Positions 2,892 to 19,452 of a stretch of DNA of 20,833 nt are shown piece by piece. Within the stretch, counting starts at the first letter, position 1, and each line of letters starts with the position of its first letter. The notes below the pieces were generated by a model that saw only the letters and a program-made list of their open reading frames with translations, did no database searches and was not told the origin of the DNA. The translations under genes and the position numbers were made by a program. Source of the stretch: a phage; assembly GCA_012060505.1 (NCBI GenBank), contig GCA_012060505.1_3027.1, one strand, 5' to 3'.

Positions 2892-3178
2892 TAGAACCTC
2901 ATCTGAAAACCATGCGATTTAACATTCCCGCCGCCAATATCAGAAATATTAATTTCACTCGCAATTGAAGGGTCAATATCAATTTCACGATTGAGTTTAG
3001 TGATAGCTAAAGTATCACGCCCATTTACTGTACGGAATTCTAAAGGACAAACCACATCAACGTAATTTTTAATCGATTCACTGGTAGGCTGCAAATGAGC
3101 AGGAAGGTCTTTAGGTGCCTTTGAGAAAACCACTTCACAAAAATTTTTGCGGGTGTCAAAATAAGTAGTCATAAACAT
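2891..3178 (-). CDS. Hypothetical protein, 95 aa (position of T4 30.6)
   Basis: ORF track; ATG preceded by GAGGA Shine-Dalgarno. Confidence 0.55.
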   Translation of the reverse strand: MFMTTYFDTRKNFCEVVFSKAPKDLPAHLQPTSESIKNYVDVVCPLEFRTVNGRDTLAITKLNREIDIDPSIASEINISDIGGGNVKSHGFQMRF

Positions 3179-3194
3179 AATATTTTCCTCAGTA

Positions 3195-3210
3195 AGGGGC
3201 CGAAGCCCCT
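3195..3210 (-). other. Intercistronic GC hairpin with UUCG tetraloop between the 30.7- and 30.6-like ORFs
   Basis: Minus strand AGGGGC-ttcg-GCCCCT just upstream of the GAGGA Shine-Dalgarno; no U-tract in the sense direction, a T-run on the plus-strand side. Confidence 0.5.
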
Positions 3211-3219
3211 CATTTTATT

Positions 3220-3585
3220 TTAAATATCAAATTCGTTAAGAACTACATCAAAGATTGCTTCAAGATGCTCAGGTTTAGCTCTGTTACTCAGAATATGACG
3301 AATCCAAGTTTTAACCAAAAGCTTGCGATTATCACCATTCCAGCAAGGATGAGTCCCTAAATCGCGTTGACGAAAATCATCATCTAAAGCGATTTTAAAA
3401 TTTGAACCTTCCATTGTGATTGAAACCGTGATGCCATTTTCAAATCGCATATAAACGTAGTTAGGAGTCATATACTGTTCAATTTCGCATACTGATCCAT
3501 TTTGATGTTTCCAAAGGCAAATAGTATCAATAGAACCTGCAATACCATTAGAAACATATTTACGTTCAAAGTTGATGTAGTTCAT
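3220..3585 (-). CDS. Hypothetical protein, 121 aa (position of T4 30.7)
   Basis: ORF track; ATG preceded by GGAG; early-type promoter immediately upstream. Confidence 0.6.
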   Translation of the reverse strand: MNYINFERKYVSNGIAGSIDTICLWKHQNGSVCEIEQYMTPNYVYMRFENGITVSITMEGSNFKIALDDDFRQRDLGTHPCWNGDNRKLLVKTWIRHILSNRAKPEHLEAIFDVVLNEFDI

Positions 3586-3611
3586 TTTTGTTCTCCGAGA
3601 TGTTTAATTGC

Positions 3612-3651
3612 GGTACAGGTATATAATATCATATCCTGTACCAAAGTAAAC
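3612..3651 (-). promoter_or_regulatory. T4 early-type promoter upstream of the 30.7-like ORF, with the -10 inside an 8-bp inverted repeat
   Basis: Minus strand aaaataattGTTTAC-17 nt-TGaTATTAT; inverted repeat GGTACAGG...CCTGTACC flanks the -10. Confidence 0.6.
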
Positions 3652-3653
3652 AA

Positions 3654-3986
3654 TTATTTTACTACTTTCCAGTGCTTCATGTCAAGTTTACCAACTTTTT
3701 TCATCTTCTCAATCAAACGTTCGGCGCGTTGGCGAGCTGTAACATAATACCATTCACCTAATTCATTTTGTTCAATTTTTCCAACGATTACTGTATTCAA
3801 TTCATAAATCCAACCAGTAAAGAAATTATGAACTTGAATTGTAAAGGTGAAATCTGTTCCCATACCTTCTGTTGTTTCTACTTCAATAATATCACCTTCA
3901 ACTGCCATTAAGAACCACATAGTTTCGTTATATTCACCATTGAAGCATTTAGCTTTAACTGCAGCGTTCAGATTAATCGTTTTCAT
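3654..3986 (-). CDS. Hypothetical protein, 110 aa (position of T4 30.8)
   Basis: ORF track; ATG preceded by AAGGAG; lies just downstream of a terminator plus promoter. Confidence 0.6.
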   Translation of the reverse strand: MKTINLNAAVKAKCFNGEYNETMWFLMAVEGDIIEVETTEGMGTDFTFTIQVHNFFTGWIYELNTVIVGKIEQNELGEWYYVTARQRAERLIEKMKKVGKLDMKHWKVVK

Positions 3987-4011
3987 TTTATTCTCCTTTG
4001 TTTGTGTAAGA

Positions 4012-4044
4012 TAATACTATCACAAAGGAACCATACTGTAAACA
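4012..4044 (-). promoter_or_regulatory. T4 early-type promoter upstream of the 30.8-like ORF
   Basis: Minus strand GTTTAC-18 nt-TGaTAGTAT, just after the terminator; inverted repeat CCTTTGT...ACAAAGG reaches into the Shine-Dalgarno. Confidence 0.45.
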
Positions 4045-4057
4045 ACTTTATGCAATC

Positions 4058-4085
4058 TTTGGAAAATAAAAAAGGACTCCCGAAG
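4058..4085 (-). terminator. Intrinsic terminator downstream of the 30.9-like ORF
   Basis: Minus strand reads GGACTCC-ttcg-GGAGTCC (UUCG loop) followed by TTTTTTTATTTT. Confidence 0.8.
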
Positions 4086-4096
4086 GAGTCCTCAAC

Positions 4097-4273
4097 TTAT
4101 GCTTTCTGCTTACCAAAACGAGAAGCATCATCTCGAAGAACCGCACGTGCTCGGCGCATGATCTTCTCAACAGTTTGATTGATACGAGAGTTCGACCCAC
4201 GCTTGTAACCAGCGCGTTTAGAATCACCAACTTTCTTTTCAACTGCTTTCTTTGCTTTAGCTTGTTTTGCCAT
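4097..4273 (-). CDS. Small highly basic protein (position of T4 30.9); alternative longer start at 4315
   Basis: ORF track 4097..4315; product from second in-frame ATG reads MAKQAKAKKAVEKK...; intrinsic terminator follows the stop. Confidence 0.55.
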   Translation of the reverse strand: MAKQAKAKKAVEKKVGDSKRAGYKRGSNSRINQTVEKIMRRARAVLRDDASRFGKQKA

Positions 4274-4518
4274 TATAAATTCTCTTTTAAATGAAAATGC
4301 AGGACTTATTGGCATTGCCTGCGCAAGCCCTCAAGGGGAACATAGGTTTTTGGGTATTTAACGACCAGGATAACCATAAACCCGTCATCATTCACATTCA
4401 AGAGGTACACCATAAAACTGCCGGGGTCTTAAAACTATAATGATTCGCAAATCATTAATCAGACAGTTCGATGGCTCCTCGATTTTAGCTCACACTAAGG
4501 CAGTGAATCTCCAATAAA

Positions 4519-5309: not shown

Positions 5310-5615
5310 TTTACCAATAAATTGGAGTAAATGCTCAACTTTCATACCATTAACAGAAATCAATTTGTCAATAGAAAAACCTCGCCACTCGCCAAGCTCA
5401 ACATCAAATACTGGAATCATATCAGTAGATTCTTTCCGAGCAGATTCAGTCAATTTACCAGTTTGCATGGTTGGCATAAAGTCAGCATCGCGAGTACCTT
5501 TCATAGTACGAATAGTACCATCAGACTTTTCAAAAACTACGTTTGAAATACCCATGGACAATTTAGTTTTCAAAATTTCACGAATTGCTACTTTCTGTTC
5601 AGTCGTCAGTTTCAT
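5307..5615 (-). CDS. Hypothetical protein, 102 aa (position of T4 31.1)
   Basis: ORF track; ATG start; directly adjacent to upstream stop. Confidence 0.6.
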   Translation of the reverse strand: MKLTTEQKVAIREILKTKLSMGISNVVFEKSDGTIRTMKGTRDADFMPTMQTGKLTESARKESTDMIPVFDVELGEWRGFSIDKLISVNGMKVEHLLQFIGK

Positions 5616-5852
5616 TTATTTACCTATTACAGTTTTAATATGAGTTGTTCCACGTTCTTTAAGGGTGGAAAGTAATTTTTGGCATTTTTCTAAATCAGAT
5701 TTCCAACTATATGGTCTATCAATACAAACCCATTCTGACTTATAATACTGCTTCCATTTAGAGAAAAAATATTTCTTATACTCTACAGCAAATGAAATAT
5801 TCTCATTAGAATAAGAACTAATTGCTGTGAGCTGTACCAAACGAAATTTCAT
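5616..5852 (-). CDS. Hypothetical protein, 78 aa (position of T4 31.2)
   Basis: ORF track; ATG start; TAATG overlap with cd stop. Confidence 0.55.
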   Translation of the reverse strand: MKFRLVQLTAISSYSNENISFAVEYKKYFFSKWKQYYKSEWVCIDRPYSWKSDLEKCQKLLSTLKERGTTHIKTVIGK

Positions 5853-7734: not shown

Positions 7735-8938
<1,204 letters not shown>

Positions 8939-9166
8939 TTATTTTTTCTCAACCAATGATTGAATATAATCATGTAGGTCTTTAGATGCTTTACCCCACT
9001 TATTTTGATATTCATTTTTGAGATTAGCACGTGATTGAGCTAATAAAACATCATTAGTTGGAGGTAAAGATTCTAACCGCTGAATCTGGCGTCCGTAAAT
9101 CATTGCAGCCATCTCGGATTCATAAATCAATCCTTTGAGATGTTCAAATTGATACCATGAAATCAT
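8939..9166 (-). CDS. Hypothetical protein, 75 aa (pseT.1-like by position)
   Basis: ORF track; ATG start; ATGA overlap with the lipoprotein ORF upstream. Confidence 0.5.
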   Translation of the reverse strand: MISWYQFEHLKGLIYESEMAAMIYGRQIQRLESLPPTNDVLLAQSRANLKNEYQNKWGKASKDLHDYIQSLVEKK

Positions 9167-11985: not shown

Positions 11986-13164
11986 TTAAAAGTATTTTTT
12001 AAAACTCATCATAACTTTATCATCAACATCATTATCAATCTGTGCAACAAGATAAGATGACAGCTCTACTTCTTGCGGTGCAGATTGAACATTATCAGAA
12101 TTAAGATATTCACGAATCCAAGGATATGGATGTTTAACCGGAGCATCGGTAATTGGGCATGGAAGACCACACTGTTTCATACGAGATACAGTTAAGTAAT
12201 CAATAAAGCTCCACATGCTATTTGTATTTAATCCAGGAACATCGCCATCTTTAAATAAATGAACTGCCCAATCTTTTTCTTGGCGGTTAACTTCCATGAA
12301 AATATCAACTGCTTCTTGTTCACACTCTTTGGCAATTTTAACCCATTCATCACCATCAGTACCGGATTGAAGTTGACGAATAATATATTGTGTACCTTTA
12401 AGATGAAGCTGCTCATCACGTGCAATAAATTTCATAATCTTCGCATTACCTTCCATGATTTCCATGTTCTTATGGAAGTTGAAAGTACATGCAAAGGATA
12501 CATAAAAACGAATAGCTTCCAGAGCATTGATAACGTGCAGACAGAGATAAAGCGACTTCATCAGGTCTCGTTTACATTCTTCCAAATGAGTGAGACTGTT
12601 TGAATATGCTTCTAAATCATATTCATTTTCAGCAAAATAACTAAAGTTTTCTTTGGCGTTTTCCCAAATACGTGTCTTGTCCAGAACATCATCATAATAA
12701 CGACCAATAGATTCAGCACGTTTCATGATAGCTTTATCTAATACAATCTCATCAAATACCTTTGACGGATCAGTATAAAGATTTCGCATAATATGAGTGT
12801 ATGAACGACTGTGAATGGTTTCACTAAAAGTCCATGTAGCAACCCATGTATCAAGGCTTGGGTCTGAAATCAATGACATAAGTACAGCAGACGGTGCACG
12901 ACCCTGAATGCTATCTAGAAGTGATTGATACTTCAGATTATTAGTAAAAATATTTTGCTGATACTGAGGAAGCTTATTAAATTGCGCAGCATCCATCATT
13001 AAGTTTACTTCTTCAGGACGCCAGAAAAATGACAACTGCTTTTCGGTTAAATCTTCAAAAACTTTATGACGTTGAATATCATAACGCGCAATACCAAGAC
13101 CTGAACCAAAAAACATAGGTTCTTTTAAAACATCAACTGGATTTGTATTAAAAACTGTGCTCAT
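11986..13164 (-). CDS. nrdB: Ribonucleotide reductase class Ia small subunit, uninterrupted
   Basis: 392-aa continuous ORF, ferritin-like R2; position after nrdA. No intron-like interruption. Confidence 0.9.
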   Translation of the reverse strand: MSTVFNTNPVDVLKEPMFFGSGLGIARYDIQRHKVFEDLTEKQLSFFWRPEEVNLMMDAAQFNKLPQYQQNIFTNNLKYQSLLDSIQGRAPSAVLMSLISDPSLDTWVATWTFSETIHSRSYTHIMRNLYTDPSKVFDEIVLDKAIMKRAESIGRYYDDVLDKTRIWENAKENFSYFAENEYDLEAYSNSLTHLEECKRDLMKSLYLCLHVINALEAIRFYVSFACTFNFHKNMEIMEGNAKIMKFIARDEQLHLKGTQYIIRQLQSGTDGDEWVKIAKECEQEAVDIFMEVNRQEKDWAVHLFKDGDVPGLNTNSMWSFIDYLTVSRMKQCGLPCPITDAPVKHPYPWIREYLNSDNVQSAPQEVELSSYLVAQIDNDVDDKVMMSFKKYF

Positions 13165-13215
13165 AAATTTTCCACTTAGTTAATAGATAGTGACTCGTCC
13201 ATGAGTCAAATTATA

Positions 13216-16034: not shown

Positions 16035-16895
16035 TTACACCGCCATTTTTCCTTTAATTGGCGGATGAGATACATAGTTGTTAAGAACAAAATTATGAGG
16101 CTTTGCAAATTGACTCAACCAAAATACCTGCGATTCTGTGCCCCATTCATCAAATTCATCTGGAAATTTTAATTGTAATTCGCATAAATCCATAGGTTCA
16201 CGACATAAAATTTCTTTACATTGTTCTACGTGATTCATATAGATATGAGTATTACCACCAGAAAATATCAAATCTCCCGGAATAAGATTACACATCTTAG
16301 CTACAATATGAACTAACGTAGCATATGATGCAATATTAAATGGAAGACCGAGGAAAACATCTACCGAACGTTGATACCACTGAAGGTCAAGGTATCCATT
16401 ACGCACATTAAACTGATAGAACATATGACAAGGCGGTAATGCCATATATTTAAGTTCAGCTGGATTCCACGCAGAAACAATTTGACGCCTATCATTTGGC
16501 AGTTTTTTAATACGATCAATAACTTCTATAATTTGATCTACACCGCCAAAATCACGCCACTGTTTTCCATAAATTGGACCAAGTTCACCGCTATGGTATC
16601 CTAAATCTTTTGCTTGATTTTCGTAATTTTCATCCCAGACTGTTTTGCCTTGAATTAATGAATCATGTTGAATTAATCGCAAATCATTGACATTTGTGCT
16701 TCCTGATAAAAACCATATTAGCTCAGCAATGCATGCATTCCAGGCGAGCTTTTTAGTTGTTACTGCAGGAAAACCTTTGGTTAAATCCCAACGCAATTTA
16801 GTACCGAACAGAGCAATTGTTCCTGTGCCCGTTCGGTCATCGGTTTCATAGCCATTTTCAAAAATGTCTTTAATTAAATCTTGGTATTGTTTCAT
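16035..16895 (-). CDS. td: Thymidylate synthase, 286 aa, uninterrupted
   Basis: ThyA active-site motif PCH ([11 protein letters not shown]); one continuous ORF of the length recollected for T4 Td, so no intron and no I-TevI ORF. Confidence 0.95.
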
Positions 16896-16940
16896 TTAGT
16901 ACCTTATATAAATTATAATACATTTTATGAAGCTAAATAA

Positions 16941-17288
16941 TCAATACGGTTTAGCATCAAATTTTCTCTCAATTTCAGGCGTGAAATATAATTCTTTACC
17001 GCGTTTGGAAAAGCGACCAATAATATGATAATTATTCTCATCAAACGTGATATTACCAATATCCATAGCTTTCAACCAAATATCGATATTTCTATCCAGC
17101 TTTATGTCAAAATTCCAATACGGAGAACTATTACCGAAAATACTACAAGCGGATTCAGTGAAACAACTGCTATAAATCTTGTCTTTAGGAACTACTAATT
17201 GATAGACACCTTTAATAAACTGAGGACCCTGCCACTTTGGCTGTTTCTCATCTTTTTCTAATAGAATAGGGTAATAATTAAAATTCAT
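16941..17288 (-). CDS. Hypothetical protein, 115 aa, between frd and td
   Basis: ORF track; ATG start preceded by a GC-rich stretch (gcgcggcgg) unusual for this AT-rich region; no recognisable motif. Confidence 0.55.
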   Translation of the reverse strand: MNFNYYPILLEKDEKQPKWQGPQFIKGVYQLVVPKDKIYSSCFTESACSIFGNSSPYWNFDIKLDRNIDIWLKAMDIGNITFDENNYHIIGRFSKRGKELYFTPEIERKFDAKPY

Positions 17289-17307
17289 ATTTCCGCCGCG
17301 CGTTATT

Positions 17308-18130
<823 letters not shown>

Positions 18131-18134
<4 letters not shown>

Positions 18135-18490
18135 ATTATCTCCCATTGAAAAGAGTCATGAGCATATCCGCTAGCGTCAATCATTTTAACTAAAGTTACC
18201 ATTCCTCTGTTAACTGCTTGCGCGATTTCATCAAAAACTTCGTCACTATCATCGTAAAGATCATTAAAAAGTTCTAACACGTTCTTCTGAACTTTTAATT
18301 TACGGCCGACAATTTCGCCTACAGTAAATTCGTTTCCGCCAAATCCAGCGTAAAATGTAATTACACCCATTAACTGGCTTTCACGAGAATCTATGTCGTG
18401 TGATAAATTAATAAAAGCCGTCCCAGGCGCGGTTTTAAGTTGGCAACGAATTTTTACTTGGGTAATTCCAGTTATATGAATGTTAGACAT
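18131..18490 (-). CDS. Hypothetical protein, 119 aa
   Basis: ORF track; ATG preceded by GAGGAAA. Confidence 0.55.
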
Positions 18491-18803: not shown

Positions 18804-19064
18804 TTATTTTTGAATTTTATCGAGCCACTTACCAAGCTTAATCATTTCTTTAGTAGCCTTTTCCATACTTCTGAACTTAACCAATAGAGGATAGGTATCG
18901 ACACCCATAACTAAATTGGTTGCAAGACTGTGTTCACCCACAAGCCATAACGAATACGTTTGAATATCGAGTCCGTAATTTCTGTCTTTATGGACCCGTA
19001 CACCCATCACTTCAAATTTCTCACTAGCTTTTTCTACCGCATCCAGGAAATCATCTTTAGTCAT
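18804..19064 (-). CDS. Hypothetical protein (frd.1-like by position); longer alternative start at 19106
   Basis: ORF track 18804..19106; start at 19106 would overlap the upstream ORF by about 41 nt with no Shine-Dalgarno, whereas the in-frame ATG at 19064 follows the upstream TAA. Confidence 0.45.
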   Translation of the reverse strand: MTKDDFLDAVEKASEKFEVMGVRVHKDRNYGLDIQTYSLWLVGEHSLATNLVMGVDTYPLLVKFRSMEKATKEMIKLGKWLDKIQK

Positions 19065-19065
19065 A

Positions 19066-19452
19066 TTAGGCCTTAAAAGTTTTTCGCAAAAGTTCAATGA
19101 TTTCATCTACATTGTTTTCATCAACAATGCAGTGAATTTTTGTTACGCCAGAAACTATACCTTCATTAGCGGATTGAGGCTTTTCTAAAGTTACCTCAGT
19201 AAAGTATTTGAATTCTTCAGAGTAAATCTCAAAATACGTCTCAAGTGGGCCACCCGCCATGTATTCAGTGCCGTCTTCCATAGTTACACGTACCACACAG
19301 TCACCAGCACAATCATCACTTTCCATTTCATCTACAACAAAACTAGGTCCGTGCTTCTCTATTAAATTTAGCATCATTACATTGCAACGGCACTCGTTAG
19401 CAAAGTCATTTTTAAATAAAGGGTTAATGATATAAGTTTTTCCAACTTCCAC
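19066..19452 (-). CDS. Hypothetical protein, 128 aa (frd.2-like by position); apparent GTG start
   Basis: ORF track; start codon reads GTG with GAGGAAA 7 nt upstream; a GC hairpin lies just upstream. Confidence 0.5.
   Translation of the reverse strand: MEVGKTYIINPLFKNDFANECRCNVMMLNLIEKHGPSFVVDEMESDDCAGDCVVRVTMEDGTEYMAGGPLETYFEIYSEEFKYFTEVTLEKPQSANEGIVSGVTKIHCIVDENNVDEIIELLRKTFKA

Follow-up and report, generated by a model that had tools for sequence, protein, structure and literature searches.

The window, by which we mean the whole analysed stretch of 20,833 nucleotides (contig GCA_012060505.1_3027.1), is a segment of a Tequatrovirus genome, and over the 801 bases queried its identity is 99.6% to phage wV7 and about 99.4% to RB51 and RB68. 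Its minus strand carries, in this order, gene 32, frd.3, frd.2, frd.1, frd, ORF115, td, nrdA.2, nrdA.1, nrdA, nrdB, denA and rnlA. The dihydrofolate reductase gene frd (17308-17889, minus strand, 193 aa; PF00186, E = 1.3e-19) is the upstream neighbour of ORF115, and the thymidylate synthase gene td (16035-16895, minus strand, 286 aa; PF00303 over its full length, E = 2e-93) is intronless and lacks I-TevI, in contrast to the split td of T4. The gap between these two genes (16896-17307) extends exactly from the start codon of td (16895, minus strand) to the stop codon of frd (17308), and according to the ORF list the sole long open reading frame within it is ORF115, which begins with ATG, encodes 115 aa and occupies 16941-17288 on the minus strand. 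The T4 record (NC_000866) places the end of frd at 145109 and the start of td at 145112, with an ATGA overlap of the two genes (145109-145112). An earlier note on this DNA had thus correctly described both the direct overlap of frd and td in T4 and the presence here of a 115-aa ORF that T4 lacks. The comparison of base composition with the flanks, which the same note had proposed, does not mark the ORF as foreign: its GC content of 30-34% is the same as that of the neighbouring DNA.

The surroundings of the junction differ from T4 in other respects as well. Every mobile element of the region is missing from the window (11986-13215 and 16035-16895): nrdB (11986-13164, 392 aa) is uninterrupted and lacks the I-TevIII intron, and just 51 bp separate nrdB from nrdA at the place where T4 has mobE and nrdB.1. 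Between frd and gene 32, where frd.1, frd.2 and frd.3 are the only annotated genes of T4, three ORFs of the window have no annotated counterpart in this T4 region; they encode 85 aa (17889-18146, no Pfam match), 119 aa (18131-18490, DUF7247) and 100 aa (18804-19106, no Pfam match). T4 looks reduced across the whole gene 32-frd-td region, beyond the frd-td junction alone. A scan of the whole window with Rfam detected no RNA family.

Two short spacers flank ORF115. The first, of 19 nt (17289-17307, minus strand), leads from the frd stop codon to the ORF115 start and holds the GC run CGCGCGGCGG (17293-17302, minus strand), which had been described earlier as unusually GC-rich. The run is indeed there, but it is not unusual, as the window contains two runs of at least 9 G/C where 1.3 are expected from shuffled sequences. 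In T6 and F2 only its 3' part, GGCGGA, is kept (with GGCGGAAA conserved) and the 5' GC bases vary, and the spacer forms no stable RNA structure (fold z-score +1.56). We therefore rejected the GC run as a special element. The conserved GGCGGA is located at Shine-Dalgarno distance from the ATG and is probably the Shine-Dalgarno sequence of ORF115.

The second spacer, of 45 nt (16896-16940, minus strand), leads from the ORF115 stop codon to the td start and contains AAGG, a ribosome-binding site for td, together with a sigma-70-like match, TTGATT-18-TATTAT (16944 to 16915, minus strand; 9/12 consensus matches), which starts 4 nt upstream of the spacer within the last codons of ORF115. A promoter-like sequence before td, as noted earlier, is thus present, but it does not stand out from chance: nine sigma-70-like sites were found in the region, whereas 6.7 +/- 2.7 are expected in shuffled sequence. 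As phage F2 in addition lacks a 32-nt segment holding most of the site, the candidate promoter was rejected. A resemblance to a MotA box (AGCTTCA versus TGCTTTA) is imperfect and was judged by eye only. The RNA fold of this spacer was not significant (z-score -1.2), and we found no terminator-like site near ORF115. Since ORF115 is read in the direction of frd and td, carries a ribosome-binding site of its own and has no terminator in its vicinity, it is presumably expressed together with dihydrofolate reductase (DHFR) and thymidylate synthase (TS). The locus of F2 (MN864145, L019:1394-2362) is peculiar in that a longer frd frame overlaps the start of ORF115 by 11 nt and only 13 nt separate ORF115 from td. 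Compared with the proteins encoded in the window, Frd and Td of F2 are just 80-81% identical and ORF115 is 92% identical, a contrast that suggests mosaic recombination around ORF115.

ORF115 is a genuine gene, as is evident from its match to a protein family, from clusters of homologues, from invariant residues and from low dN/dS values. The sensitive profile search that the earlier note had called for assigned the protein to PHROG 1928 (E = 3.1e-36, 124.9 bits; residues 4-111 aligned to positions 2-125 of 126). A HMMER search of 1.84 billion representative proteins retrieved 18 further clusters with proteins of 95-116 aa and one match that we take as spurious, the 838-aa TPR-repeat protein P0021, which was matched in five stretches. 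With only 19 clusters at 50% identity among these 1.84 billion proteins, the family is confined to T4-like phages. Residue conservation, scored across alignments of 21 and 33 family sequences, revealed Q16, W19, G27, G91, K95 and G97 as invariant and L9, Y29, N79, R92, F93 and F102 as nearly invariant, and two family motifs are found in ORF115, an N-terminal L-L-x-x-D-x-x-Q-x-x-W and a C-terminal G-R-F-x-K-x-G-x-x-x-x-F. No Asp, Glu or His is invariant across these alignments. The ORF115 product has a mass of 13.7 kDa and a calculated pI of 7.7, and the members of the family are mostly basic (pI 7.7-9.5, with one exception at 5.2). Pairwise dN/dS of ORF115 is 0.107 against TadeuszReichstein and 0.061 against F2, which is as low as for td (0.07) and below the values for frd (0.15-0.20); the gene is under strong purifying selection (dN/dS 0.06-0.11). 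As a feature it is already known, since identical proteins have been deposited as 'hypothetical proteins' for many phages; those annotated in JK1, REP3, Sa45lw and others are 100% identical to ORF115.

When 50,697 phage records were searched by tblastn, the ORF115 protein was detected in 590 of them. Identity was at least 90% in 363 of these records, including T2, T6, RB3, RB6, RB18, RB32, RB51, RB68 and AR1, and below 60% in the other 227, which represent phages of Klebsiella, Enterobacter, Salmonella, Citrobacter, Serratia, Erwinia and other hosts. ORF115 is the majority state in Tequatrovirus. Diverged homologues (27-46% identity) directly follow frd in at least seven other genera of Tevenvirinae, so that the arrangement is syntenic in at least eight genera overall; a homologue between frd and td was present in each of the annotated genomes inspected, those of Kanagawavirus ZX14, Mosugukvirus PM2, Jiaodavirus KP17, Gelderlandvirus CGG4-1, Moonvirus Merlin, Marfavirus R3_1 and Winklervirus CHI14/Kc304. 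The homologue is likewise located directly after frd and before td on three metagenomic contigs, and the order Frd-ORF-Td was seen in 15 of 15 IMG/VR loci picked up by a family motif. Relative to the copies in the window, the ORF115 homologues of these phages are 27-63% identical, Frd 40-52% and Td 69-77%. The divergence of ORF115 thus tracks that of Frd, which together with a GC content equal to that of the flanks indicates vertical inheritance and not a recent insertion. The description of the ORF as inserted between frd and td therefore has to be reversed, given 363 records with highly similar proteins and homologues after frd in seven other genera. The pattern that the earlier note had named as speaking against an insertion, with the ORF at this position in T4 as well as in every relative, was found in part: most relatives, T2 and T6 included, have the gene there, but T4 does not.

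In most other genera a second ORF of 113-124 aa follows between the first ORF and td. It is a paralog of the first, with which it shares a QKKW motif near the N-terminus, a GRFxKxG motif near the C-terminus and membership of PHROG 1928; comparison of the pair by hhalign yielded a probability of 99.3% (E = 4.5e-20), and the second paralog is present in 129 phage records. The codons of the homologues in other genera usually overlap those of frd and td, and the tandem paralogs also overlap each other, for example at loci L003 (2498-2833 and 2817-3176) and L004 (2498-2824 and 2808-3155) and likewise at L006, L007, L008, L012, L015 and L017. Tequatrovirus and Jiaodavirus have one copy and T4 has none. 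Judging from this distribution, the ancestral frd-td junction probably carried a tandem pair. The sole exception to the frd-td position within the family is a member with 30% identity (P0016; L014:1248-1577, ENA metagenome contig k141_230232), which is located away from frd and td, upstream of an RlaP-type nucleotidyltransferase gene, on a T4-like contig whose other products include RegB-like and ValRS-modifier-like proteins. At another locus (L028:2060-2500; IMG/VR UViG_2974736276, a genome of 175.8 kb) a gap of ~440 bp lies between frd and the homologue, and td directly follows the homologue; this arrangement would imply a further insertion, on the frd side of the junction.

The alignment of the junction with T4 and its relatives, also proposed earlier as a way to define the boundaries, identified these as two copies of the 9-bp direct repeat TAAATGAAA, and the event that they delimit as a deletion. 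The upstream copy, found by pattern search and in the T4 alignment, spans the frd stop codon (17306-17314, minus strand), and the downstream copy, found by pattern search, spans the td start codon (16890-16898, minus strand). The copies are 416 bp apart in the window, and T6 has the same two copies with the same spacing. When positions 16899-17314 are removed in silico, the result is the ATGA junction of frd and td in T4, with 118 of 120 bases identical. A 60-nt probe representing the T4 junction found a contiguous match in only 32 records. These comprise isolates of T4 and phages derived from it (T4T, RB55, RB59) as well as about a dozen isolates of independent origin, among them vB_EcoM_112, G28, F1, FN, FL12, HY03, SG1, G2133, JEP6 and FL18. 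The direct frd/td junction is a natural minority allele. Because it is rare and is reproduced by a deletion of 416 bp between repeats, we regard the arrangement of T4 as the derived state. In addition, a search of all six-frame ORFs of the complete T4 genome with the family profile detected no member (best E = 0.56), whereas ORF115 of the window scored E = 9e-38 in the same search. T4 has lost PHROG 1928 entirely and has no paralog elsewhere. We are thus highly confident that ORF115 is a real ancestral gene that was deleted in T4.

The succession of events is then as follows. The common ancestor of the Tevenvirinae already had a PHROG 1928 gene at the frd-td junction; most genera retained two tandem paralogs overlapping the frd stop and td start codons, and Tequatrovirus one. 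In the lineage of T4 this single copy was lost via the 416-bp deletion between the TAAATGAAA repeats, and this deletion created the ATGA overlap of frd and td. The data themselves document this succession. The repeat is also found elsewhere in the window, with six copies where 1.3 are expected, a number that no shuffled sequence reached. The further copies are located at 5610-5618 and 8933-8941 (minus strand) and at 1053-1061 and 4288-4296 (plus strand), and those on the minus strand sit on stop/start junctions between genes (TAA-ATG-AAA). Motifs that recur at gene junctions in this way could provide the microhomology by which whole genes are deleted from T4-like genomes.

Within Tequatrovirus the junction has a third allele, as in about 130 records the T4-junction probe is matched in its frd half only. 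Here ORF115 is replaced by an ORF of 68 aa belonging to PHROG 9550 (L009:3059-3265 in Paracelsus, MZ501096), which overlaps the frd stop codon (ATGA), abuts or overlaps the td start and has no Pfam match. The Paracelsus record does not annotate it, and elsewhere it is entered as a 'hypothetical protein'. We considered it as a degenerate remnant of ORF115; despite a short DNA resemblance, hhalign gave a probability of 0.08%, and the two are unrelated. The absence of ORF115 from T4, JEP6, FL18 and Paracelsus, all of which have the td intron, first led us to suspect that its loss was linked to this intron by I-TevI co-conversion. We tested this with a probe running from the 3' end of frd through td exon 1 into the beginning of the intron and with a spread sample of 60 records, and rejected the link, as all combinations occur: ORF115 with the intron in T6, RB3, IME340, KMB39 and others, ORF115 without it in T2, AR1, RB32, RB18 and others, the third allele with the intron in fPS-90 and SHFML-26, and the third allele without it in SH-1 and Sfk20. 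Gelderlandvirus CGG4-1 has both paralogs and the intron. FL18 (L011, PP400780, locus 3059-4364) is labelled Mosigvirus yet shows the T4-type junction (98.3% over the 60-nt probe), and of the homing endonuclease its td intron contains no more than a remnant of 55 aa, annotated as such; FL18 thus appears to have a degraded I-TevI.

An ORF that some close relatives have and others lack, and that has known homing sites on either side (that of I-TevI in td, and that of SegG, which acts near gene 32 and whose gene is seen in the T4 record), might be a free-standing homing endonuclease, or the remnant of one, that invaded the frd-td junction. Indeed, four BASEL genomes, TadeuszReichstein (L002:3242-3589, bas43_0069), FriedrichMiescher, KarlGJung and WilhelmHis, annotate the ORF as 'putative homing endonuclease'. 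However, neither ORF115 nor 33 members of the family showed a GIY-YIG, HNH, LAGLIDADG or PD-(D/E)xK domain in Pfam searches with E values up to 1. At this threshold ORF115 matched no Pfam family at all and no family was shared among the 33 members, ORF115 matched no NCBIfam family, and PADLOC-DB contained no family for it at E up to 1. Its family alignments also show no invariant Asp, Glu or His, the protein reaches only about half the size of the Seg and Mob proteins of T4, its distribution across genera is vertical and syntenic, and it is found in phages that have the td intron as well as in phages that lack it. The earlier statement that the ORF, lacking GIY-YIG and HNH motifs, does not look like a homing endonuclease is thus confirmed, and we consider such an origin exceedingly improbable. 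In the absence of a nuclease domain or catalytic residue the label in the BASEL genomes is without sequence support; it would seem to be an annotation error, and one that could spread to other records. In line with the earlier note, PHROG 1928 has no function assigned to it, and it has neither a Pfam nor an NCBIfam model; among PDB sequences no solved relative was detected by phmmer or profile search, and searches of the accessible literature brought up nothing relevant on ORF115, PHROG 1928 or the frd-td junction, the accessory-gene screens that we checked making no mention of the ORF.

Structure prediction offers some indication of what the protein might do. The AlphaFold2 model based on the 21-sequence alignment is of high confidence (pLDDT 90.9, pTM 0.84), and DSSP assigned strands to residues 6-12, 27-34, 62-64, 80-82, 86-96 and 99-104 and a helix to residues 68-77. 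The predicted order of elements, b1-b2-b3-helix-b4-b5, is compatible with an OB-like five-stranded barrel, although the model showed no significant structural similarity to solved OB domains. In a viral structure library, significant matches were restricted to uncharacterised proteins from other phages of the T4 type. Among them are longer proteins of Muldoon, Cronus, Ah1 and phiAS5 and a PM2 protein whose length of 115 aa makes it the probable paralog in that phage. Invariance of side chains is limited to Q, W and K, with L, Y, N, R and F nearly invariant, and these residues do not make up a catalytic set. The product of ORF115 may thus be a non-enzymatic beta-barrel binding module whose ligand would be a nucleic acid or a partner protein of nucleotide-precursor metabolism; it would be useful enough to remain under purifying selection, yet dispensable, since T4 lacks it. 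Taken by itself, the assignment as a non-catalytic binding protein is tentative and open to considerable doubt. The account as a whole, an ancestral gene that T4 has lost and that encodes a non-catalytic binding protein, appears likely to us.

Alternatively, the protein might interact with the host, binding a host factor or a defence sensor and thereby neutralising it as a counter-defence protein, in which case its position between frd and td would be of historical significance only. The junction behaves like a cassette site with three alleles (ORF115, the 68-aa ORF of PHROG 9550, or nothing), copy number varies and other genera have tandem paralogs, one member is found in a different context, the family occurs only in T4-like phages, and T4 is fully viable without the gene. 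Arms-race genes, however, would not be expected to show a dN/dS of 0.06-0.11 and such slow change within Tequatrovirus, strict synteny across genera would be unusual for shuffled cassettes, there was no match in PADLOC, and the ORF is not mentioned in the papers on accessory-gene screening that we checked. A role in counter-defence is therefore rather unlikely in our view.

The location of the gene invites yet another explanation, an adaptor of the thymidylate cycle that bridges DHFR and TS, or tethers them to gp32 and DNA, and thereby channels folate and dTMP. In nearly all cases the gene lies between frd and td, a position kept across genera that are ~50% apart in Frd sequence, and the overlapping codons in other genera imply coupled translation; the predicted OB-like fold would be compatible with the binding of a protein or of ssDNA. 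Overlapping codons are, however, the rule in the early regions of T4-like phages and hence not specific evidence, and with regard to a physical association with components of the T4 dNTP-synthetase complex (DHFR, TS, RNR, gp42, gp1 or gp32) what the data show is gene adjacency. Moreover, T4 has neither the gene nor a paralog, many phages carry an unrelated cassette instead, and the member at L014 is located outside the frd/td context, which all argues against an obligatory role in DHFR-TS function. We thus consider an adaptor of this kind distinctly unlikely, and that PHROG 1928 represents a new class of small OB-like thymidylate/folate-module adaptors, acting in DHFR-TS coupling or in tethering to ssDNA or gp32 at the replication fork, is a very doubtful proposition. 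If the adaptor existed, T4 would be atypical and reduced in having lost this component, although it served as the model phage for defining the dNTP-synthesising complex.

The reading we prefer, an ancestral gene deleted in T4, corrects the frame of reference for this locus: T4 represents the derived, gene-poor state at the frd-td junction, and the ATGA overlap of its frd and td genes is not the ancestral arrangement but the scar left behind when 416 bp were deleted between 9-bp repeats. As an accessory gene, ORF115 is ordinary and widely conserved among T4-like phages, and in the annotation of T2, T6 and RB-type genomes the ORF should be labelled neither as an insertion nor as a homing endonuclease. 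Being conserved, often present in two copies and confidently predicted in its fold, PHROG 1928 is a reasonable, though not an urgent, target for study.

Several known systems can be compared with ORF115. Closest are the members of PHROG 1928 themselves (RB32ORF229c, ar1_242 of AR1 and KMB99_gp163 of T6), which are the same protein without differences and which in the genomes of T2, T6 and the RB series are annotated as 'hypothetical protein'. The seg and mob homing endonuclease genes of T4 are inserted amid conserved genes and missing from close relatives, and in this they resemble ORF115, which lies between two conserved metabolic genes and is found in some close relatives but not in others; ORF115 differs from them in its lack of a nuclease domain and catalytic residues and in its half size, and in contrast to a patchy invader it represents an ancestral, vertically inherited majority state. 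For the adaptor discussed above, the fused DHFR-TS of protozoa was proposed as a functional analogue. OB folds (SSB, RPA, the RecO N-terminal domain, HIN, S1, Cdc13 and Teb1) make up nearly all weak structural neighbours of the ORF115 model and appear to share its order of elements; like the OB domains that bind nucleic acids, the ORF115 family is mostly basic and has conserved aromatic and basic residues (W19, Y29, R92, F93, K95). The other small ORFs of the gene 32-nrdA cluster (frd.1/DUF5417, frd.2, frd.3, DUF7247, nrdA.1/DUF4326 and nrdA.2/DUF5496) belong to different families without detectable homology to ORF115, and frd.1 to frd.3 have been kept in T4, whereas ORF115 is missing there. 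They are nevertheless like ORF115 in being small, uncharacterised genes that lie on the same strand amid genes of nucleotide metabolism and are conserved across the genera of T4-like phages.
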